64,000 nt of DNA from NCBI GenBank assembly GCA_035456105.1, contig DATIDV010000041.1, positions 27,219 to 91,218 on the forward strand, written 5' to 3'. Positions 11,859 to 56,521 of this stretch are shown piece after piece. This DNA comes from Rhodocyclaceae bacterium (GTDB taxonomy: Bacteria; Pseudomonadota; Gammaproteobacteria; Burkholderiales; Rhodocyclaceae). The stretch's first letter is position 1, and every line of letters starts with the position of its first letter. The notes under the pieces were generated by a model, which worked only from the letters and a program-made list of their open reading frames with translations, was not told where the DNA came from and ran no database searches. The position numbers and the translations under genes were made by a program.

Positions 11859-12772
11859 CGACTCAGCCCTTCGGCAAGGTAGCTGTGCTCATGGGCGGCA
11901 ACTCCGCCGAGCGCGAGATTTCACTGATCTCGGGCAAGGCCGTGCTCGCGGCTTTGCAGAGCAAGGGCGTCGACGCACATGCCTTCGATCCGGCTGAGCA
12001 TTCGATCTGGGATCTGAAGACGCAAGGTTTTGCGCGTGCTTTCATCGCCTTGCACGGACGCTTCGGTGAGGACGGTACCCTGCAGGGCGCGCTCGAAGCA
12101 CTCGGCATTCCCTACACCGGCAGTGGCGTGATGGCTTCCGCGCTGGCGATGGACAAGTGGCGCACCAAGCTTGTGTGGCTTGCCGCGGGCGTGCCGACGC
12201 CGCGCTTTCACATGCTCACGCCCGAAAGCGATTTTCAGTCCGTCATGCAGGACCTGGGCTTGCCGCTCATCGTCAAGCCGGCGCGTGAAGGCTCATCGAT
12301 TGGTGTCAGCAAGGTCAGCACGGCCGCCGAGTTCGCACCCGCATTCGAGGCGGCCTACAAGCTCGACCCACTCGTCATCGTCGAAGAGTTCGTGACCGGC
12401 TCGGAGATGACCGCAGCAGTGCTTGGCGACACCGCCTTGCCGCTGGTGCGCATCGAGCCAACGCAGGGCGAATACGATTACCAGAACAAATACTTCACCG
12501 ATTCGGTGAAATATCACTGCCCGGCCGGTATCGATGCAGCGCTCGAAGCTGCAATCCAGAAGGATGGCCTGCGCGCCTTCCAGGTCTTGGGGTGCAAGGG
12601 CTGGGCGCGTGCCGACGTGATCGTGCGTGCCGATGGCAGCTATGCCTTCCTGGAAATGAACACAGCACCCGGCATGACCGGCCATTCGCTGGTGCCGATG
12701 GCCGCGCGGGCGACCGGCATGAGCTTTGAAGATCTGTGCGTGAACATTCTCGAGAGGGCATCTTTTGGCTAA
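11822..12772 (+). CDS. ddl: D-alanine--D-alanine ligase
   Basis: Conserved core begins at GKVAVLMGGNSAEREISL and is ATP-grasp throughout. The start is uncertain: GTG 11822 (used here) or GTG 11744. Either way the N-terminus is encoded by the right arm of repeat A. Confidence 0.9.
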   Translation: MTDSLLTPHASLPTQPFGKVAVLMGGNSAEREISLISGKAVLAALQSKGVDAHAFDPAEHSIWDLKTQGFARAFIALHGRFGEDGTLQGALEALGIPYTGSGVMASALAMDKWRTKLVWLAAGVPTPRFHMLTPESDFQSVMQDLGLPLIVKPAREGSSIGVSKVSTAAEFAPAFEAAYKLDPLVIVEEFVTGSEMTAAVLGDTALPLVRIEPTQGEYDYQNKYFTDSVKYHCPAGIDAALEAAIQKDGLRAFQVLGCKGWARADVIVRADGSYAFLEMNTAPGMTGHSLVPMAARATGMSFEDLCVNILERASFG

Positions 12773-47800: not shown

Positions 47801-48988
47801 GGCATCGTGGATCTGAATTTCGACGCCGCGCGCGTCAGTCTCAGCAAGCTCGACTTCCGGGCCGAGCGCAGCCTGGCGGCGCCCGATTCGCGTTTGCGCG
47901 TGCTGAACTTGCCGGGCGCCGAGGGCGGCGCGGCGAAAGATGATTCCGGGCGCATCAGTGGCAGCGGCGGCGTCGACCTCAAGACGGGGCTGGGGGCGTT
48001 CGAGCTGTTGGTCGACCATGTGCCCATCCTGCAGCGCGCCGATCAGTGGGCGCTAGTGTCTGGCACGGTTGGCATTGCCAGCGGCTGGGAGCACATGGAT
48101 ATAAATGCGAAGCTCCGCGCCGATGCGGGTTTTTTCGGGGTGCCGAAATCCGGTGCGCCGTCGCTGGGCGACGATGTGCTGGTGCGTGGGCGGCAGACCA
48201 AACCGCCGCAGCGCATGCGCGTCAATCTCGACGTCGACTTCGATTTCGGCCGCAACTTCATCGTCAAGGCCTGGGGCATCGACACCTGGCTTGACGGCCA
48301 GCTGCGTGTGCAACTCGCACAGGGCCAGCAGCCGCGCGCCACCGGTGCCTTGCGCACCCGCGAAGGTGTTTTCGAAGCCTACGGACAGAATCTGGCGATC
48401 GATCGCGGCCTGATCAATTTCTCGGGCCCGCTGGACAATCCCGCACTCAATGTTGTGGCTGTTCGCAAGAATCTGGCCGTGGAAGCTGGCGTCGAAGTCA
48501 CTGGCCTCGCCAGGCAACCACGCGCGCGCCTGGTGTCTGACCCGGAGGTGCCGGATAGCGAAAAGCTGTCATGGATTCTGCTGGGCCGCGCCAGCGACGC
48601 GGAGGGCGGCGATGCGGGGCTGCTGATTGCCGCGGCCTCCGCAGCGTTCAGTGGAGAAGGGCCCGCCATTACGACGCGCGTGGCGAACACTTTTGGTTTT
48701 GACGACGTCTCACTAGGGCAGGGCGGCATGTCGAGCCGCCCCGTGCAGAGCCGCGTGGCGAGCAATTCCACGGGGTCCAGCAGCACCGCAGCCGGCTCCG
48801 TCAACGGTCAGGTGATTTCACTCGGCAAGCACTTGTCGGCGCAAGCCTATCTGGCGCTTGAGCAGAATCTGGAGGGGACCGAGAGCATCGTCAAGCTCAC
48901 CTACAGGCTCACCCGCTATCTGTCTGTCATTGCACGCGGGGGCACCGACAATTCTCTGGATCTGAACTACAGCATATCGTTTCAGTGA
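44867..48988 (+). CDS. tamB: Translocation and assembly module protein TamB (DUF490 C-terminus)
   Basis: 1373 aa with a single N-terminal TM anchor (LLWAFVVLGVLVGALLGGLYW) and a long beta-rich body. The C-terminal DUF490-type region is GLINFSGPLDNPALNVVAVRK...SWILLGRA...LNYSISFQ. It starts 12 nt after trpC. Confidence 0.85.
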   Translation: MTGTDPKPARKPLWRRLTRRLLWAFVVLGVLVGALLGGLYWSLGSESGSQTLIATLSRWSGGMLQIEGWQGRVVGPVQMKRLRLHLAAVDIDAERITLDWRPAALAQGLLNINNLHVGRLEIRTPVSDEPATIPTSISLPFRLHVAALDVGVLAVGARAANGAAVAPPYVLLNDVAGSVDSDAQSHRIHSLALSLPAGRVTAKGEIKLQSPYALTAQAAFAGKLAEHAVNLDAKADGSLDRLTLHLLASGQGISGTADAGVRPFAALPIEQARIALKGVDPAVFHPDAPHALLDVLANLTPSLPAASGQGAADTSPQHWQISGPVEVLNRQPATIDAGGVPVERLATQLSWAAGALQLDDLQVSLPGHGRIDGKLQWQTLAANPVGRIETELTIQGLDPARLHTKMRAMQIAGKISGKSVPEEGKVVGNLGGNSGGKNTSQMQTFRIDLASGIYHLVAQGAQRGGALELQQAALTAGKASVEASGRWQWQVAPGAADTQAFSAKGRLQAFDPHAFVATAPPGNLNADFSLDGVLQPAWRANMALDIANSSLDRFPLQGHARLIAEPGRAHDTDIALDVLGNHLKLTGAIGRADDRLQVLVDATQLGRLQDGLHGKLTVQGSVGGSLQEPFMALSAQAEGLGMDGAANLESLQAKLQLEAGAKGAVDGRVDLKGLRVGNDATEPQVRHAALVIGGRRDAHTVHLDAGLLKEQGLSLTAEGGWHAPPARASNAAGNAAGAWQGRLTQLVATGPLALRLKSPADISVAPQRVALGEALFEADNGSVVLSTTEWTPLRSVARGHMSGLQIGFAVDEYQRTVMRGKSLQLGAVWDVTLAERANGLVRVFREGGDFILQGDSPVALGLETLELNLAAQEDRLALSGLVNGKRVGAINFAGTALARRQGTHISLDPDAVLTGVGHVEVPALDWLGPVIDQNLRTGGSFVGDFNILGTATRPQSSGHILGSKLFIALADQGLRLRDGIVDLNFDAARVSLSKLDFRAERSLAAPDSRLRVLNLPGAEGGAAKDDSGRISGSGGVDLKTGLGAFELLVDHVPILQRADQWALVSGTVGIASGWEHMDINAKLRADAGFFGVPKSGAPSLGDDVLVRGRQTKPPQRMRVNLDVDFDFGRNFIVKAWGIDTWLDGQLRVQLAQGQQPRATGALRTREGVFEAYGQNLAIDRGLINFSGPLDNPALNVVAVRKNLAVEAGVEVTGLARQPRARLVSDPEVPDSEKLSWILLGRASDAEGGDAGLLIAAASAAFSGEGPAITTRVANTFGFDDVSLGQGGMSSRPVQSRVASNSTGSSSTAAGSVNGQVISLGKHLSAQAYLALEQNLEGTESIVKLTYRLTRYLSVIARGGTDNSLDLNYSISFQ

Positions 48989-49014: not shown

Positions 49015-51087
49015 TTATTTCAGGAACTGCGATTCATCCGATTGCTTTGGCAGTTGTGCACGTCTGGATATGCGCTTCGTGACGTCTTGCTGCCACACCA
49101 CGTCATCGTCCACCGCGTATAGCCAGCAGGCCTCGCCGAGGCGTTCGCAATAACTCAGGGCGTCTTCCATGGCGGCAGCGCCCAGCCAGTAGCGTCCGAA
49201 GCCTTCGCGCGTGACTAGAAAAGCGCGTGGCGCGGGCTTCTCCAGAAAGGCGCGATAAGTCGTCAGCTGATCTTGCGGCAAAGGTACAGCGGCCAGATCC
49301 TTCACATCAGCAAAACCGCTGGCATTGGGGCGAAGGCGCATGTCTCCGCTGTCAGCACCATCCGTGTTTGTTGGCGACAGTGCTGCCGATGGCGCGCCCT
49401 GCAGGGCCCAGACGACGCGGTCATCCACCGCATACAGATAGCAGGGGCGGCCGCGCGACAGCACCAGGCAATGGGCCAGTGCATCGGCTGACGCGTTTGC
49501 GCCGATCTTGCTCGACCAGGCTGCGAGGTCACTACCATTGGGGCCGATCGCAAATGCACGCGGACGCCTGGATGTGTTGAGAAAGCGCTCGTAGCCGACT
49601 CGCCCCGCAGCATCGAGCAGTGGTACGTCCTGGACCCGGTTCAGGCGTGGATCCGTCGTGTTGTCCAGTGCTGGCTGTGGTGAATGGGTGGCTGTTTCCG
49701 GATCCCAGACGACGGCGTCATCCACGGCATACAGGGCGCAAGGGACGGCAAGAGTCGAACAGGTTCTCAGTGCTTCCGCGGCGGCGTTGCTGCCGGATCG
49801 GTATGACCACTTAGTGGAGCCCGGGCCGATGGCAAATGCGCGCGGACGCAACGGTGTGTTCAGGAAGCGCTGATAGCCCGTGCGCCCCGCATTGTCAATG
49901 AAGGGCACGTCGGCCACCCGGTACAGGCGTGGATCGACGTCGCTGGCAGGTTTTTCGGCGTCCACTGCAAGTGGTGCATCCGAGACCGCAATGCCCAGTC
50001 CGAGATTCGCAGGGAGTGATTTTCTGTCGGGTAGCAACTGCAGGCCATTCAAGCGCTTGTTACGGATTTCACCAAGCGTGGCACTTTGCCAGAGGGTACG
50101 CTCGGCCGAGAAAGGGTGGCGCTGGGCGAGGCCGCCGTTGGTCTTGCTGGTCAGGTTGCTGGCCAGGCGACGCCAGATGTCGCTTGCGCGCTCGCCATCG
50201 AATCCGGCAAGCACCGCGATATAAGCGCCCAGATAGTCAGCCGCGCGCTCTTCCGTCGCCGGGTATTGCAATTCAGCCTTGTCTCCAGATTTGAGAGCTG
50301 CGGCCGGCCCGCCGGCGAGGGCAAAGATGCTGTGGGCGACGCCATGTGCCAGAACGAGCGCCAGCTCGTCATCGTTGCCGATGAAACGCAGCATGCCCGT
50401 GCTGACCGACATCGCGCCATTCGAGACCTCTGCGATTAGCGCGTCATTGCGCAGCAGGTACGGGACCTCTTTGCAGATCAGTTGAGCCTTGGCTCTGACT
50501 GTCTGTACCTTCTCGGCCGAAACAAGTGTCAGCACGAAAGACCGGTTTTCAGCCAACGTGTTCCCTGGTCTGTTGAGCACCCAGCTGGCATGCATTGTTT
50601 TGCCGGTAGCGGTGTCGGTCAAAGCCTGCAGTCGATCGCCAGCGCGTGCACCGGCCTGGCGAAATGGACTGAACGTCGGGACGTCCAGAAAGACTGGATA
50701 CGGCGTTGCATTCGTATCCAGCGCTTCAAGAAATCCCTTGCGCAAGTCCTCCGGCAAATCCTGACTGGCAATGGGGGGGGCGCCAAGACTCCAGCCGCGA
50801 TTCTGCAGACAATAAGGGCTCGCTGCCCGTTGTATCGCGAACGCGACGCGCTCAAGACGTGCCCGGTCGGCAAGATACAGGCGCGTTTCGTAGATGCGCT
50901 GGACGCGTGCTTCAACCTCGATGCGCGCAGTGGTCGAGGAGGACGGTGTATCCACAGCATGCGCCGTGCACGACAGTGCTGAGACGAGTGTTGCAGTCAC
51001 CAGTCGGCGCAAGCGGGGCTTGAGCGCATTTGTGACGCTACATATGGCCCAGGCCGGAATTTCAATAATTTGCACTGCTTTGCTCAC
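49015..51087 (-). CDS. Secreted M48-like pseudo-peptidase with PDZ-like segment and three C-terminal Cys-pair repeat modules (paralog 1)
   Basis: 690 aa with a signal peptide (RLRRLVTATLVSALSCTAHA). It has HGVAH in place of HEXXH and EERAADYLGAYIAVLAGFD resembling the M48 third-ligand region. Three ~75-aa modules end in C..(6-7)..C.LYAVDD.VVW. The GTG start at 51087 is uncertain; an internal TTG is possible. Confidence 0.7.
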   Translation of the reverse strand: MSKAVQIIEIPAWAICSVTNALKPRLRRLVTATLVSALSCTAHAVDTPSSSTTARIEVEARVQRIYETRLYLADRARLERVAFAIQRAASPYCLQNRGWSLGAPPIASQDLPEDLRKGFLEALDTNATPYPVFLDVPTFSPFRQAGARAGDRLQALTDTATGKTMHASWVLNRPGNTLAENRSFVLTLVSAEKVQTVRAKAQLICKEVPYLLRNDALIAEVSNGAMSVSTGMLRFIGNDDELALVLAHGVAHSIFALAGGPAAALKSGDKAELQYPATEERAADYLGAYIAVLAGFDGERASDIWRRLASNLTSKTNGGLAQRHPFSAERTLWQSATLGEIRNKRLNGLQLLPDRKSLPANLGLGIAVSDAPLAVDAEKPASDVDPRLYRVADVPFIDNAGRTGYQRFLNTPLRPRAFAIGPGSTKWSYRSGSNAAAEALRTCSTLAVPCALYAVDDAVVWDPETATHSPQPALDNTTDPRLNRVQDVPLLDAAGRVGYERFLNTSRRPRAFAIGPNGSDLAAWSSKIGANASADALAHCLVLSRGRPCYLYAVDDRVVWALQGAPSAALSPTNTDGADSGDMRLRPNASGFADVKDLAAVPLPQDQLTTYRAFLEKPAPRAFLVTREGFGRYWLGAAAMEDALSYCERLGEACWLYAVDDDVVWQQDVTKRISRRAQLPKQSDESQFLK

Positions 51088-51304
51088 AGCATTGGCTTCG
51101 CATTATTGCTTGTCTGTGCGGCCTCAAGGTGGGTGACTCCCTCAAGGATCTGTTGGCGCCGTATTGTAGCCGCCTGGTCGAACCACGGGCTTAAACATGG
51201 CCTGGAATCCGTGACCTCCTTCAGTTTCGTGCGCAACGGTGGCGATGCAAGCGTGTGAGACTGGGCAGAGGCGCCCATTGCGGTCCGGTCATGGCCCGGA
51301 AATG

Positions 51305-51331
51305 AAAAAGGCACTTGTAAGTGCCTTTTTT
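51305..51331 (-). terminator. Rho-independent (bidirectional-looking) terminator after the Gly/Asp-tail gene
   Basis: AAAAAGGCACTT-GT-AAGTGCCTTTTTT. On the minus strand the stem is followed by a T-run, 30 nt after the stop at 51361. Confidence 0.85.
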
Positions 51332-51360
51332 GCTCGTTAGCGGGGTGCAATCAGGGGGCA

Positions 51361-51630
51361 TCAGCTGTCGCCGCCGCCATCGCCGCCATCTCCACCTCCG
51401 CCATCTCCACCGTCGCCGCCATCTCCTCCGCCGTCACCGTCGCCTCCTCCGCCGTCGCCTCCACCATCTCCGCCATCGCCATCACCTCCATCGTCAGCGA
51501 GAGCGAAGCCTTTTCTTCCAAAGAGCTGATTGCGGCGAACGCCACGAATGTTCAGTGCAAGCGACCAGTTTGTCGGCGCATCCTCTTCTGAGGTTTCGTT
51601 AGGTTCATTCACTTCAGAATTCTTGCTCAT
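51361..51630 (-). CDS. Small protein (89 aa): hydrophilic N-terminal 45 aa plus a 44-residue C-terminal tail of only Gly/Asp (terminal Ser)
   Basis: The ATG at 51630 is preceded by GGAGGG at 8-nt spacing, and a strong terminator lies 30 nt after the stop. The sequence is MSKNSEVNEPNETSEEDAPTNWSLALNIRGVRRNQLFGRKGFALA followed by DDGGDGDGGDGGGDGGGGDGDGGGDGGDGGDGGGGDGGDGGGDS. No family recognised. Confidence 0.6.
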   Translation of the reverse strand: MSKNSEVNEPNETSEEDAPTNWSLALNIRGVRRNQLFGRKGFALADDGGDGDGGDGGGDGGGGDGDGGGDGGDGGDGGGGDGGDGGGDS

Positions 51631-51753
51631 TGGTATTCCCTCCATAAGAGAAACAACAGGTGCCATTTACGGGCAGTTCTTCGATTACCCTATTTACATA
51701 CTACAGCCGATAAGGCTGACGGGTGTTTTTTCCACGACCCAGCGGGGCAAGAT

Positions 51754-53538
51754 TCAGTTTTCGAGGAAGCCCGATTCGTCGTTTCTTGTCGGCAGCTGGC
51801 TGCTGTGCGAAATCCGCTTGTTCGCATCCTTGCTCCAGACCACTTCGTTATTGACTGCGTATAGCCAGCACGGGGCATCAATGCGCGCGCAATGCGCCAA
51901 TGCATCATGCATGGCGGTCGGGCCTATCCAGTACAGACCCTTGCCATCCTGCGTAATCAGAAAGGCTCGCGGTGAGGGTTTCTCCAGGAAGGCCTGATAT
52001 ATGGGCAGCCTGTCGGCCGAGAGTGGCACGGCTGTCAGATCATTGATTTCGGCAAATCCTGTGCCTTTGGGTTGGCCAAGCAGTTCGCTTGACTTGCGGT
52101 TCGCAATGGACTGTGGCTGATCGAGCGCTGTCGCCGGATTCCAGACCACCTTGTCGTCGACCGCATAGAGGTAGCACGGGCCGCGCGCGAATACTGAGCA
52201 GTGTTCAAGAGCGTCGGCCGCTGCGTTCGTGCCGAACTTGAGGGACCAAGCGCCACGCCCTGTCTTGGCTGGGCCAAGGGCAAATGCACGTGGCCGTAGC
52301 GGGCTATCCAGAAACCGCTGGTAAGCCGCTATTCCCTCGTTGTCGATGAATGGAAGATTCGTAAACATACGCAGGCGCGGGTCATCCTTGGCGGCTTGGG
52401 CGTTGTGCTCGCTGTCGTTTTGAGGAAGGGCGGAGCCTGCGCGGAAATCTGTTTCTGAAAACGCCAGGGAGAAAAGACGATCCGGTATCTGTCGTTCGCC
52501 GGCCTGCGCTTGACGAAGGATGTCATTACTCACTACCTGAATTTGCACGCCACGGGAGGGGGAGAGAGGATGCCGCGCAGAAAAGCTGTCCTTGCCGTGG
52601 CTCGCGGGAATGCTGGCGATACGTCTCCAGACGTTTCGGGCTCGCATGATATCGAAGTGTGCTGCGATGAGCAGGTAGGCTCCCAGATAGTCAGCCGCTT
52701 CTTCGTCTGCCGAAGAAAATCGCTCCGGCGTTTTGCTGGTCGAGTGGCTGGACCTGGATGCACGGGCAAAACGCAGTTGGTCATGGATGAGTTCATTGGC
52801 GATCAGATAGGCCAGTTCGTCATCATTGGCTACGAATCGCAGAACGCCCTGGCTCAGATGCAAAACGCCTGAATCAACTTGCGCGACTAGATTGCTTGTT
52901 CTCAGAAACTGAAGCCGTACGTCACAAACAAGCTGCGGTAGCGTCTTGAGCGATACCTTGAGGTCGCCCCGCTGAACCTCCACTTCAACGGCTTCATTCA
53001 GTATGAAGGTGCTTGTCGGGCGATTCAGCGTCCAGCCGGGCGATGGTCGTTTTCCGGTCGCCCGATCAGTCATCTGTAGCAGGACGTCGCCTGGCTGAAT
53101 ACCTGCTTTCGCCGCGGGGCTATCCAAGGCGATATTCAGGAAGCGAGGCAACTTGCTGGTGGGTGATGGCGGCTGATCCGCAAAGCCTTCACGCAAGTCT
53201 TGCGGAAGGGCCTCCATCGCAAACGGGGGGATTCCCAAACTGAATTTTCGTTGTTGAACGCAATACGGCGCACCTGCCTTGATCACCGCATAGGTCACTC
53301 TTTCGGCACGTTGCAGATCGGCGAGGTAGGCGTCGGTTGCAAACTGCTGTTGCGCGCGCGCTTCGCCGGCGAGTTGTTCGTAGTCTGGTGTGGGCTGGCC
53401 CGCCGCGCTGGCGATACGGTCGGAGAGGCCCGTAGCGGACACTATCGCGCACGCTACGAAACGAAGTAGCCAGAGCCTTTTGGCAAGGGTGGCCACCTGT
53501 CGTGTCGTGTTGCCGATTCGTGGCATGCGTCTATTCAC
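51754..53538 (-). CDS. Secreted M48-like pseudo-peptidase with PDZ-like segment and two C-terminal Cys-pair repeat modules (paralog 2)
   Basis: 594 aa, colinear with paralog 1 over the first ~385 residues. It has NELIH in place of HEXXH at the same positions (248-252), a PDZ-like SPAAKAGIQPGDVLLQM, and EEAADYLGAYLLIAAHFD. Two modules end in C......C.LYAV[DN][DN].VVW. Confidence 0.7.
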   Translation of the reverse strand: MNRRMPRIGNTTRQVATLAKRLWLLRFVACAIVSATGLSDRIASAAGQPTPDYEQLAGEARAQQQFATDAYLADLQRAERVTYAVIKAGAPYCVQQRKFSLGIPPFAMEALPQDLREGFADQPPSPTSKLPRFLNIALDSPAAKAGIQPGDVLLQMTDRATGKRPSPGWTLNRPTSTFILNEAVEVEVQRGDLKVSLKTLPQLVCDVRLQFLRTSNLVAQVDSGVLHLSQGVLRFVANDDELAYLIANELIHDQLRFARASRSSHSTSKTPERFSSADEEAADYLGAYLLIAAHFDIMRARNVWRRIASIPASHGKDSFSARHPLSPSRGVQIQVVSNDILRQAQAGERQIPDRLFSLAFSETDFRAGSALPQNDSEHNAQAAKDDPRLRMFTNLPFIDNEGIAAYQRFLDSPLRPRAFALGPAKTGRGAWSLKFGTNAAADALEHCSVFARGPCYLYAVDDKVVWNPATALDQPQSIANRKSSELLGQPKGTGFAEINDLTAVPLSADRLPIYQAFLEKPSPRAFLITQDGKGLYWIGPTAMHDALAHCARIDAPCWLYAVNNEVVWSKDANKRISHSSQLPTRNDESGFLEN

Positions 53539-53748: not shown

Positions 53749-54405
53749 TCAGTTGCTCGCGACTTCGCCTTTGGCGTGCAACACGCTTTGCACCAGCTCG
53801 GCGAGCGAGTCCGCTTCCATCTTTTCCATGACGCGGGCACGGTGCACTTCCACCGTTTTGATCGAGATGCCCAACTCGTCGGCGATTTGCTTGTTGAGGC
53901 GGCCGGCGACGATCAGCTCCAGCACCTCGCGTTCGCGTGGTGTGAGTTGTTCGATATGGCGCAAGGCGTCCGCGCCCTGGCGGCGATGCTGGTGCTGGGT
54001 GCGGTCGCGTGCGAGGCATTGCTCGATGAGGTTGAGCATGTCCTGGTCATGGAAGGGTTTTTCGATGAAGTCGAAAGCGCCTTTCTTCAACGCGGTGACG
54101 GCCATCGGCACGTCGCCATGGCCGGTAATGAAGATCACGGGCAGGGTCGAGTGCTGGCTATTGAGCTTCTCGTGCAGCTCGAGCCCACTCATGCCCGGCA
54201 TGCGAATGTCGAGGATCAGGCAGCCGCGCAGGGTGGGCGTCCACACCTCGAGGAAGGCTTCGGCGGAGGGATAGGAGGCGACCTTGAGGCCGGTGGATTC
54301 AAGGAGCCAGACGAGGGAGTCGCGCAGCGCATCGTCATCGTCGATGATGTGCACGAGTTGATCGGCAGACTGGCTTTCAGGAGACGGTGACGGATTGAGG
54401 CTCAA
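53749..54405 (-). CDS. Two-component response regulator, FixJ/NarL (LuxR-type HTH) family
   Basis: REC domain (HIIDDDDALRDSL...LILDIRMPGMSGLEL...KKGAFDFIEKP) plus LuxR HTH (LTPREREVLELIVAGRLNKQIADELGISIKTVEVHR). The start is uncertain: TTG 54405 with a GGAGA RBS (overlaps the kinase end) or a downstream GTG. Confidence 0.88.
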   Translation of the reverse strand: MSLNPSPSPESQSADQLVHIIDDDDALRDSLVWLLESTGLKVASYPSAEAFLEVWTPTLRGCLILDIRMPGMSGLELHEKLNSQHSTLPVIFITGHGDVPMAVTALKKGAFDFIEKPFHDQDMLNLIEQCLARDRTQHQHRRQGADALRHIEQLTPREREVLELIVAGRLNKQIADELGISIKTVEVHRARVMEKMEADSLAELVQSVLHAKGEVASN

Positions 54406-56521
54406 GGCTGTTCTCCAGAGGCAAAGTGAATTTGAAGATACTCCCACCCATGGGGTTTGGGTCAACCCACAAGCGGCCATTGTGAAATTCGATGATGGAA
54501 CGACAGATATTCAGGCCCATGCCCATGCCTTCGGCTTTGGTGCTGAAGAAGGCAGAGAAGAGTTTCTCGCGGTCTGTCTCGCCGATGCCGTGACCCAGGT
54601 CGGTGACCGAGACTTCGATCAAGTCATCGAGCTGGCGCGCCGCGACGACGACTACGCGGCGCTCCGGCGGCTGGCCGATCTCCGCCTCGGCAGCATTCTT
54701 GACGAGGTTGAGCAGAACCTGTTCGATCATGATGCGATCGGCATAGACACTGGGCAAGCCCGGCGCGATGTGCGATTCGATCTTGATGCCAAGGCGTTGT
54801 GCTTCGATTTCAGCAATGCCCAGCGCATCCTCTGCGATTTCCGTCAGGGCTACGTCATTGCGTTTGGGCTCGCTCTTACGCACGAAGTCGCGCACGCGGC
54901 GTACGATGTGGCCGGCCCGTGCCGCCTGAGCGTTGGCTTTCTCCATGGCGTTGAGAATATCGTCATGCTTGTACTCGCCACTCTTTAGGCGATTGACGCA
55001 GCCCTTGGCGTAGTTGGCGATGGCAGACAGAGGCTGGTTCAGTTCGTGGGCCAGGGTCGAGGCCATCTCACCCATGGTGATCAGGCGTGAGGTGCGAGCC
55101 AGTCGTGCTTCCTGTTCGCGATTGAGTTCTTCGACGTGCTTCAGTTCGGAGATGTCGGTAGCCACGGCGAGGCGCACGACGCGACCGTCGACCCACAGCG
55201 TGGCGCGCTCGCGCAAGTGGAACCAGTGGCCGGTGATGGGGTGCTGCAGCTCGCCGTCGAAGAGTTCTCGCGGCAATTGAGCCGGATCGAGATTGCGCGG
55301 ATCGACGAGGTAGTCGCCCATTTCCGGCCGCGGAATGGCGAGACCGTCGTGACCTACCAGGGCGCTGCTACCGTCGCGACGCAGGAAAGCGCGGTTGGCA
55401 TACAGCACTTCATCGTCGGCCGCATCGACCACGTAGACAGCGGCGTCCAGACCATCCAGCACGGCGGTGAAACGTTCGTAGGCAGCTTCGAGGTCGCCGC
55501 GAACACGTCGTGATTCAGTGATGTCGGTCAGTGCCGACATCCAGCCTGTCTGCACACCGTTGGCATCGACAAGAGGTGATTCGTGCAGGCGCACGTCCAG
55601 CGTGCTTCCGTCCGGGCGCTGGATGCGCGCGTCAAAACCTTCTTTCGGCGCCTTGCCGGACAGGCACAGCGCAAGGTTGTGCCAGTTGGTGGCGTACTCG
55701 TTTTCCGGCCAGTAGGCGAATGGAGGCTCAGAGCCCACCAGTTCCTCGGTTTTGCGACCAGTGATTTCGCAGAACGCATGGTTGACGTAGATCGTGCGGC
55801 CGCGCAGGTCGATGGCGCGCAAGCCAGTGGAGACGGACTCTTCCATGGCCTTGCGAAAGGCTGTCTCGGCACGCAACGCGTCTTCCGAAACCCGGCGATC
55901 CGACACATCGTGGGCGACGGCAAATACTAGCCGATCGTCCTTCACGGGGTTGGCGCTCCATGACAGCCATTTGTAGCTGCCGTCACCACAGCGGCAGCGC
56001 ACCTCGAAATTGCAGGCCTTGCCTTCGGCGAGGCTCGCCAGGGCCGTCAGCACAATGTGCACGTCGTCGGGGTGAATCAGGTCTGTGATGGTTTTTTCTG
56101 GCAGGTGGTCGGGGCGCTGCCCCAAAACATTCAGAAAGGCCGGATTGGCGCGCTTGACCGTGCCGTCCATGCCGAGCACGCACAGCAGGTCGAGCGACAA
56201 GGCAAAGATCTGGTCGCGCTCGCCGGCGATGATCTCCATGCGCTGGTGCTGCTCGCGTGCCGTCCACAGACTCCAGGAGGCGACGGCGAGCAGGGCGACG
56301 ATGAGCAGGGTGGACAAGGCATCGACGCTGGTCGCTGCCGGGTTACCAATGGAGCGATTGGCGATCCAGATGAGCCCTATGAGGGTTGCGATGCCGATGA
56401 TGACCAGCGCGAAGGAGGGCGCGCGGGCCTCACGTGGTGACGACGCTGAGGTGTGCGGATCCATGGGGGCCAGACTTTCGACGGTGCTTGATTGTCTGTG
56501 CTGCATCTGCGCGGACGGCAT
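54377..56521 (-). CDS. Membrane-anchored multi-PAS sensor histidine kinase
   Basis: 714 aa with two N-terminal TM helices and several PAS-like segments. It has a HisKA H-box (MASTLAHELNQPLSAI) and HATPase N/G boxes (LLNLVKNAAEA, DLGHGI, GMGMGLNICRSI). Confidence 0.9.
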   Translation of the reverse strand: MPSAQMQHRQSSTVESLAPMDPHTSASSPREARAPSFALVIIGIATLIGLIWIANRSIGNPAATSVDALSTLLIVALLAVASWSLWTAREQHQRMEIIAGERDQIFALSLDLLCVLGMDGTVKRANPAFLNVLGQRPDHLPEKTITDLIHPDDVHIVLTALASLAEGKACNFEVRCRCGDGSYKWLSWSANPVKDDRLVFAVAHDVSDRRVSEDALRAETAFRKAMEESVSTGLRAIDLRGRTIYVNHAFCEITGRKTEELVGSEPPFAYWPENEYATNWHNLALCLSGKAPKEGFDARIQRPDGSTLDVRLHESPLVDANGVQTGWMSALTDITESRRVRGDLEAAYERFTAVLDGLDAAVYVVDAADDEVLYANRAFLRRDGSSALVGHDGLAIPRPEMGDYLVDPRNLDPAQLPRELFDGELQHPITGHWFHLRERATLWVDGRVVRLAVATDISELKHVEELNREQEARLARTSRLITMGEMASTLAHELNQPLSAIANYAKGCVNRLKSGEYKHDDILNAMEKANAQAARAGHIVRRVRDFVRKSEPKRNDVALTEIAEDALGIAEIEAQRLGIKIESHIAPGLPSVYADRIMIEQVLLNLVKNAAEAEIGQPPERRVVVVAARQLDDLIEVSVTDLGHGIGETDREKLFSAFFSTKAEGMGMGLNICRSIIEFHNGRLWVDPNPMGGSIFKFTLPLENSLEPQSVTVS

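Follow-up and report, generated by a model that had tools for sequence, protein, structure and literature searches.

A Gly/Asp-tailed putative SmaA-like precursor gene between two paralogs with an M48 peptidase fold and a degenerate zinc site in a Rhodocyclaceae bacterium

A block of three minus-strand genes, here termed A, S, and B, lies in a 64,000-nucleotide (nt) stretch of DNA (the window) from a Rhodocyclaceae bacterium (GenBank assembly GCA_035456105.1, contig DATIDV010000041.1, positions 27,219 to 91,218 of the forward strand). A and B encode large paralogous proteins; S, which lies between them, is a small gene whose product ends in a tail of Gly and Asp residues. The explanation that we favor, and which we regard as probable though only just, is a composite one: S would be a precursor peptide resembling SmaA, of the SmaO/SmaX aminomalonate pathway, which has been relocated between the genes for two pseudo-peptidase paralogs. 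S is a new form of a recently described system, and A and B are a new and very rare M48/PDZ variant. The module of three genes is real in the sense of a conserved neighborhood, not of a proven machine.

Protein hydrolysates have long been seen to contain aminomalonate, its origin not being known. A route through SmaO and SmaX, affecting two Asp residues in a single peptide made on the ribosome and modified after translation (RiPP), was described in 2025 (PMC12186529). The two enzymes convert Asp in a DGDG core to hydroxyaspartate (Hya) and then to aminomalonate (Ama) (PMC12186529; Kim et al., JACS 2025), the cleavage of hydroxy-Asp to aminomalonate being carried out by SmaX (PMC12186529). This is an atypical single-iron HD-domain enzyme, the only HHpred matches of which are DUF6817 and HD_4, and its iron-site residues are His39, His63, and Asn143 (PMC12186529). 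The Gly following the Asp is essential, since GDA is not a substrate (PMC12186529). Many predicted precursors carry Asp in Gly-rich regions, SmaO-SmaX fusions exist, and the stand-alone SmaO/SmaX clusters encode a leader with a double-glycine (GG) motif together with a peptidase-containing ATP-binding transporter (PCAT) (PMC12186529).

The S protein has an acidic N-terminus, followed by a conserved leader-like motif (TNWSLALNIRGVRRNQL) and a short linker. Its tail, 44 residues long, comprises 14 Asp, 29 Gly, and a single Ser. Twelve of the 14 tail Asp residues are followed by Gly and 11 are found in GDG; the homologs are similar. Like SmaA, S is a ribosomal peptide with Asp inside a Gly-rich "DG" core, though with 10–14 candidate sites in place of two, and in sister genomes S is followed by genes for an Fe/2-oxoglutarate (2OG) oxygenase and a DUF6817/HD-type protein. 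An S ortholog adjoining both enzyme genes is found in L008/L009, L015, and L017, but not in the window (L numbers denote loci and P numbers proteins). The DUF6817 protein beside the S orthologs matches PF20680 at E 1.8e-23, and these proteins possess invariant H44, H68 (in CHS, with the HD-dyad Asp missing), and N149; their spacing of 24/81 compares with 24/80 in SmaX, the residue correspondence being drawn from the spacing only. The DUF6817 profile also weakly matches the HD domains of SpoT/RelA, and for the oxygenase there is a weak match to the structure of a protein prolyl-hydroxylase (4iw3). A single protein of 342 amino acid residues (P0060) has the 2OG-FeII oxygenase domain fused to DUF6817, matching the published SmaO-SmaX fusions (PMC12186529).

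S also differs from the SmaA clusters. The S leader, NWSLAL.IR..RR, differs from that of SmaA and possesses no GG cleavage motif; neither a PCAT nor a class-defining enzyme such as an ATP-grasp is encoded in the S loci; and in the window the gene is unlinked from the enzymes and lies between two genes for periplasmic proteins. No long open reading frame (ORF) with a Gly/Asp tail was found in the distant SmaX-like metagenome loci (L018–L044). Taken by analogy, S is most likely a multi-site SmaA-like substrate.

S occupies one of two alternative sites, and its distribution between them is complementary. At the triad site the genes run aceE <- / -> PAS kinase, FixJ-type regulator, A, S, B / <- tamB, trpC. 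The window, Uliginosibacterium silvisoli H3 (L001), L005, and L007 share this order, of which L006 and L011 show a part, for a total of six Uliginosibacterium-like (Rhodocyclales) contigs, in which the A proteins are 47–71% identical. At the same position the metagenome-assembled genome (MAG) RYN_555 (L002) has a B-type protein alone, leaving no room for S, and U. sediminicola (L004) has a single 553-residue member of the family and no small ORF. The neighborhood comparison that the earlier note had proposed as a test of the triad is divided, with recurrence in six contigs on one side and these two solitary large proteins on the other. In both of the latter genomes S is found in the order glnA <- / rhodanese, nadA, S, 2OG-FeII_Oxy_3, DUF6817. 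The order nadA-S-oxygenase-DUF6817 is seen in L008/L009, L015, and L017 (metagenome), and as far as the contig end in L010; at these nadA loci S is directly upstream of, and co-oriented with, the two enzyme genes, an adjacency which occurs in at least three distinct lineages. U. silvisoli H3, which carries S in the triad, has nadA, a 60-nt gap, the oxygenase, and DUF6817, with no S there, and the same arrangement without S is present in a metagenome contig (L016). This complementary placement speaks well for a functional tie of S to the oxygenase pair, but only weakly for one to A and B. In each of the three genomes that could be checked, S and the A/B family occur together; conservation of the triad is, nevertheless, weak evidence for functional coupling, since all triads may descend from one relocation event.

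The glnA <- / rhodanese, nadA, (S), oxygenase, DUF6817 block is kept in Uliginosibacterium, Viridibacterium, and Rhodocyclales MAGs; across these blocks the oxygenase is 75–87% identical and its DUF6817 partner 60–68%.

In the scheme that we propose, a SmaO-like Fe(II)/2-oxoglutarate Asp beta-hydroxylase would act on many of the approximately 12 Asp-Gly sites of S, after which a SmaX-like single-iron HD-domain oxygenase (DUF6817) would turn the beta-hydroxy-Asp into aminomalonate. The genes for both enzymes would lie at the nadA locus, in another part of the genome, and a polyanionic peptide with dense chelating groups would result. A and B would function in the envelope as binding or scaffold proteins rather than as proteases. 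We infer that in an ancestor of the U. silvisoli-like lineage the S cassette left a nadA-S-smaO-smaX arrangement and came to lie between A and B. Were S a substrate, no earlier candidate would have had an entire tail of 40 residues (10–14 sites) converted, and the minimal set of one precursor and two enzymes, with no exporter, would speak for a cellular role rather than for an antibiotic.

Protein searching and six-frame reading of related loci yielded at least nine S homologs; these have W, S, L, A, R, and R as invariant positions and end in a (G/D)n tail, some with Ser. Their core reads (N/D)W(S/A)LA(L/M).(I/V)R..R(R/S), the S frame is conserved in ten loci, and many synonymous changes are seen between loci across the invariant NWSLAL codons. 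Given these invariant residues and synonymous codon changes, S is judged to be a real gene under purifying selection. The proteins of the triad type mostly end in GGGDS. An exhaustive HMMER search with an S profile against 1.84 billion representatives gave only seven matches, and when 185,579 species genomes were scanned with a pattern based upon a five-sequence alignment, which would miss variants such as NWALAM, S was located at two loci. One weak match of the HMMER search, P0062 (E 3.7e-4; 344 residues), contains a G/D run of low complexity but nothing resembling the S leader, and was set aside as a chance match.

Reading of the S sequence revealed no Sec, Tat, or lipoprotein signal and no GG leader. 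The RR pair is followed by NQLFGRKGFALADD without a hydrophobic stretch of 12–20 residues, and a Sec or Tat export signal was therefore rejected for lack of a hydrophobic h-region after RR. A double-glycine leader was likewise rejected, no LSxxELxxIxGG-like leader being present, as were repeats-in-toxin (RTX) repeats of the GGxGxDxUx type, the tail containing only G, D, and S, with no fixed nine-residue period and no hydrophobic residue. No transporter gene was found in any S locus examined.

Public annotation frames the S region wrongly in two relatives, namely at 12041–12331 of L001 (U. silvisoli H3 in GenBank, between VVD49_10215 and VVD49_10205) and at 11897–12094 of L007 (a JGI metagenome contig). 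The wrong-frame calls give Met/Ala/Val-rich products, with the S frame being open and conserved. Because S is called in the wrong frame it is under-represented in protein databases, and such records make the family invisible to protein-based mining. In the window itself S is overlapped by a His/Arg/Leu-rich ORF on the plus strand (51321–51602) and a Met/Ala/Glu-rich ORF on the minus strand (51351–51545), neither conserved as a protein; both are by-products of the GGN/GAY repeat.

With its own upstream motif, ribosome-binding site (RBS), and terminator, S looks like a self-contained cassette forming its own transcription unit, not the middle cistron of an operon. The interval from the A stop to the S start (Table 1) is a candidate for a promoter and 5′ untranslated region belonging to S. 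The hairpin beyond S consists of an A-tract, the stem-loop GGCACU-UACA-AGUGCC, and a U-tract, with a folding energy of −15.5 kcal/mol (z −5.6). It was missed by a consensus promoter/terminator scan and confirmed by RNA folding. Similar hairpins, differing in stem sequence, follow S in L001, L005, L006, L007, L008, and L011; across loci their energies range from −15 to −19 kcal/mol (z −2.8 to −5.6), and in L008 the hairpin is present even where the oxygenase gene comes next. A terminator behind the precursor gene is usual in peptide-modification clusters, as in lantibiotic operons. A sigma-54 promoter at TGGCAC (51661–51666) was rejected, the GG/GC spacing being wrong. Between S and B, the region 51088–51300 can be aligned between the window and L011 (for example CATTTCCGGGCCA...GCCTCT.CCCA) and may hold the B promoter or a regulatory site. 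An 88-codon ORF found in this part of the minus strand (51084–51350) is probably spurious.

The earlier note had described the two long minus-strand ORFs, of 594 and 690 residues, as paralogs colinear for about 385 residues, with signal peptides, a PDZ-like stretch, and a common tail, bracketing an 89-codon Gly/Asp gene. The ORF list agrees, and the homology extends further than was claimed: BLASTP aligns A and B over 564 columns with 38% identity (E 1e-109). The starts giving 590 and 686 residues (Table 1) are those chosen by gene callers in a public collection. Both N-termini are hydrophobic and, read directly, resemble signal peptides (...LVSALSCTAHA|VDT in B). The tail, KRIS..QLP...(D/E)ES.FL, is kept in 18 of 19 family members. 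A consists of a signal peptide, a long N-terminal helical region, a PDZ domain, an M48-like core, a disordered linker, two Cys-pair repeats, and the tail; B, which has the same tail, is longer by one extra C-terminal repeat, for a total of three. Their signal-peptide segments and Cys pairs suggest that both proteins reside in the periplasm.

The Pfam and structural analyses that had been recommended for the large proteins, with the structure modeled for A, gave an M48 fold and an HtrA-type PDZ domain. Matches of single sequences to Pfam and NCBIfam are weak: Peptidase_M48 (PF01435) on B reaches 22.4 bits against a cutoff of 20.3, the PDZ_6 and PDZ_2 matches, with the PDZ match being on A, are below the gathering thresholds, and DUF4189 is sub-threshold. 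A profile of 19 family members searched against the PDB matches 3c37 (E 7e-10) and BepA (E 1e-4). The AlphaFold2 model of A has a mean predicted local distance difference test (pLDDT) score of 76.5, exceeding 85 in the core, and Foldseek relates it with probability 1.0 to 6ait (BepA) and 3c37 and, with the same probability, to the PDZ domains of HtrA1/2/3, DegS, AlgW, and DegP, which, with the weak Pfam matches, bears out the PDZ-like stretch. Homology and modeling identify A and B as paralogs, arranged in tandem, of a very rare protein in which an HtrA-type PDZ domain is inserted in an M48 fold. The family is tiny, with 22 matching clusters among 5.8 billion, and several of its members sit as A+B pairs on one contig.

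The M48 peptidases BepA (6ait) and 3c37 share with A and B a homologous catalytic-domain fold and sequence, including the active-site and ExxAD helices, and BepA is also periplasmic. A and B differ from both in having the PDZ domain inserted ahead of the core beta-sheet, and in their two to three C-terminal Cys-pair repeats and conserved tail. In HtrA and DegS the PDZ domain is attached to a trypsin-type core, whereas in A and B the core is of the M48 type. Equivalence to BepA was rejected, NF052400 scoring 20.4 bits against a cutoff of 570 and the C-terminus being formed by Cys-pair repeats with no tetratricopeptide repeats (TPR). PADLOC, which was run for anti-phage defense, gave no match for A, B, or S. 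The earlier note could assign the block to no known system; A and B are now placed in the M48 fold, and S can be tied to the Asp-to-aminomalonate pathway of SmaO/SmaX (PMC12186529).

The zinc site of both proteins is degenerate. In A, NELIH stands in place of HExxH, Asn replacing the first His; in B the sequence is HGVAH, Gly replacing the catalytic Glu. The hidden Markov model (HMM) alignment sets the family "ANELAH" against AHEINH of 3c37, and the first-His position is Asn in 15 of the 19 members. HELAH is retained by the distant P0019 only. The B orthologs exhibit NELAH, NEIAH, TELAN, NAIAH, and NELAR, and half of the B-clade members are also without the Glu or the second His; the active site of this clade is drifting independently in each lineage. 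In the A clade, NE..H is kept in seven of eight members. The putative third-ligand Glu of the ExxAD helix is present in A (EEAADYLG) and B (EERAADYLG). P0017 and P0018, which are single-copy members, have lost it, and P0015 has Asp instead. As HExxH is degenerate, A and B are probably non-catalytic pseudo-peptidases, or A is at best a very atypical enzyme; the description of these proteins as "scaffold-like" by the earlier note suits such an active site. The window B is the sole family member with HGVAH, in which both His residues are retained and the catalytic Glu is gone, its orthologs having Asn at the first His position.

The Cys-pair repeats are each approximately 90 residues long and carry the invariant pattern P..Y..L..PR..G..AL..C.......C..Y, with one Cys pair per repeat. 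The predicted model, which is confident (pLDDT 90.5), has the order helix-beta-beta-helix-beta, and Foldseek of this model against the PDB found no fold match (best E 1.4). DUF4189 (PF13827) matches five of 27 repeats at E<=1, the best scoring 15.5–19.6 bits against a cutoff of 25. The proteins of that family (XAC2611/Tpf, Rv1813c) are, like the repeats, small secreted Cys-containing alpha/beta modules, and some repeats match it marginally in Pfam; the single Cys pair and the order of secondary structure distinguish the repeats described here. DUF4189 was rejected as the repeat family, with scores under threshold, the wrong Cys pattern, and no fold match. A and B define a very rare architecture, comprising an M48 fold, a decayed active site, an inserted PDZ domain, and a repeat without a solved relative.

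The Cys-pair repeat also forms the end of a trypsin-like S1C protease (P0020; three copies and a related RIPQL tail), is fused to an S9/S15-type alpha/beta-hydrolase (P0021), and is found in P0022 beside an unassigned N-terminal domain. It seems to be a portable module of periplasmic proteins, one that is attached to hydrolases.

Several points weigh against our composite explanation. A tblastn search of the 64-kb window and the triad loci found no SmaO or SmaX homolog, and the presence of these enzymes in the genome of the window organism is surmised from its nearest sequenced relative, in which the pair sits at nadA with no S. S has no GG-motif leader and no accompanying PCAT, unlike the published stand-alone clusters. 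Viridibacterium curvum has nadA-smaO-smaX without an adjacent S, for which reason the enzyme pair may have another substrate. In seven of eight members of the A clade both the Glu and the second His are retained; Asn could in principle still ligate a metal, and residual or altered catalysis in A is conceivable. Lastly, A-S-B has been kept across lineages in which A is only 47–71% identical, and selection for co-location could account for this, which would favor a single unit.

That S is an unmodified, disordered acidic protein, serving as a cytoplasmic buffer for Ca2+ or other divalent metals or providing an entropic or DNA-mimic tail, with its adjacency to the oxygenase a coincidence, strikes us as doubtful. 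A tail in which 14 of 44 residues are Asp would by its composition alone bind cations, V. curvum and U. silvisoli have nadA-smaO-smaX without S next to it, and in L008 a terminator separates S from the oxygenase gene; this last feature is, however, usual in clusters of the peptide-modification kind. A simple polyanion would need no conserved leader-like motif, the tail consists of exactly the Asp-Gly unit which SmaO requires, and the S-smaO-smaX adjacency recurs in three or more distinct lineages. The still simpler proposal, that the small ORF is no gene but a GC-rich repeat remaining open by chance, draws on the imperfect tandem DNA repeats, the other open frames on both strands, and the choice of a wrong frame by public annotators in two relatives. 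It is effectively refuted by a frame shared among ten loci, an invariant and non-repetitive N-terminal motif, synonymous variation, an RBS, and a terminator, none of the other frames being conserved as proteins.

The suggestion of the earlier note that A, S, and B form one functional unit has fared unevenly: the triad is conserved and S is real, but S has its own signals and terminator, the large protein stands alone in L002 and L004, and elsewhere S lies beside the oxygenase. In its developed form, S would be exported and then bound, processed, or presented by a periplasmic A/B hetero-complex, with contact through PDZ domains on the C-terminal ...GGGDS, or through S carboxylates completing the half-empty metal sites, and with the upstream PAS kinase/FixJ-type pair controlling the whole. 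We think this unlikely. The A-S-B order in six contigs despite considerable divergence, the presence of S in all three checkable genomes with an A/B-family protein, the GGGDS ending of most triad-type S proteins, and the constant position of the kinase/regulator pair ahead of a large-protein gene are congruent with it; an S product without Sec, Tat, lipoprotein, or GG-leader signals and with no transporter gene nearby is not, nor are the terminator between S and B, the conserved promoter-like motif between A and S, and the large proteins lacking an adjacent S, and all triads may trace to a single relocation. Quite unlikely is an A that acts as a non-canonical Asn/His/Glu metalloprotease with B as its inactive regulatory paralog, the two taking part in BepA-like envelope quality control beside tamB. 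Here one can cite the retention of NE..H in seven of eight A-clade members with the downstream Glu of ExxAD, set against a B-clade motif that decays freely (HGVAH, TELAN, NAIAH, NELAR), as well as BepA being the closest characterised structure and tamB the convergent neighbor in seven of eight loci. We know of no characterised zincin in which Asn replaces the first His; moreover, the single-copy P0017 and P0018 are also without the putative third-ligand Glu, there is no TPR domain as in BepA, and L004 has no adjacent tamB. A fuller scenario extends the composite explanation: O2- and Fe(II)-dependent SmaO/SmaX would make S into a poly(Gly/aminomalonate) or poly(Gly/hydroxy-Asp) chelator, which exits the cytoplasm and is captured or presented by the pseudo-peptidase pair, incomplete metal sites or PDZ domains of A and B holding its carboxylates or C-terminus, all under a FixL/FixJ-like sensor. 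As a whole we hold it to be very unlikely; if true, it would amount to a ribosomally made device for gamma-carboxyglutamate (Gla)-like metal (Ca/Fe) handling or signaling, and to a new envelope system.

Table 1. Positions of the genes, predicted domains, and candidate signals of the A-S-B block and of the nadA blocks (window coordinates in nt unless otherwise indicated)
Feature	Position	Strand	Remarks
Gene A	51754..53526	-	590 aa from ATG at 53526; ORF extends to GTG at 53538 (594 aa)
Gene S	51361..51630	-	89 codons from ATG at 51630, stop at 51361
Gene B	49015..51075	-	686 aa from GTG at 51075; ORF extends to 51087 (690 aa)
S upstream region	51638..51701	-	Alignment of A stop to S start in window, L001, L007, L011
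Motif GTATGTAAAT	51692-51701	-	Conserved among close triad loci
Motif TGTTGTTTCT	51648-51657	-	Conserved among close triad loci, followed by ...GGGGGAA
RBS GGAGGG	51638-51643	-	8 nt before S ATG
Intrinsic-terminator-like hairpin	51301..51330	-	~30 nt past S stop, ahead of B
A degenerate zinc-binding motif ANELIH	52783..52800	-	HMM alignment, family column
B degenerate zinc-binding motif AHGVAH	50332..50349	-	Family alignment
A inserted PDZ	aa 125-197		AlphaFold2 model, Foldseek
A M48-like core	aa 198-345		Sheet, active-site helix, and ExxAD helix
A Cys-pair repeats	aa 383-462 and aa 486-565		
A conserved tail	aa 566-590		
Two-component pair	53749..56521	-	Upstream of A, same orientation; Pfam matches
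PAS/PAS/HisKA/HATPase kinase	54377-56521	-	Pfam
Receiver + GerE/LuxR-type (FixJ-type) regulator	53749-~54405	-	Pfam
nadA block	L008 8796-11566; L014 4206-6609; L015 3830-6624; L045 4073-6576		

The surroundings of the block are as the earlier note had described them. The ORFs and Pfam matches place the PAS kinase and FixJ-type regulator in the same orientation as the three genes, and the block is flanked by trpC (indole-3-glycerol phosphate synthase) with tamB on one side and by aceE on the other. The end of tamB at 48988 and the B stop from 49015 leave 26 nt between the convergent stops. Among the related loci tamB is the convergent neighbor in all but one of eight, L004 having none adjacent. 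The nearest relatives of the block are found in Uliginosibacterium (Rhodocyclales, Zoogloeaceae) and in Rhodocyclales MAGs, which corrects the earlier expectation of relatives in the Oxalobacteraceae and Burkholderiaceae.

The gap between the regulator and A is approximately 220 nt, and the kinase/regulator pair precedes the large-protein gene wherever the upstream DNA is known. In the window the kinase and regulator ORFs overlap (54377–54480). In relatives, a 218-residue regulator begins 29 nt ahead of the kinase stop, and this position of the start suggests translational coupling of the two.

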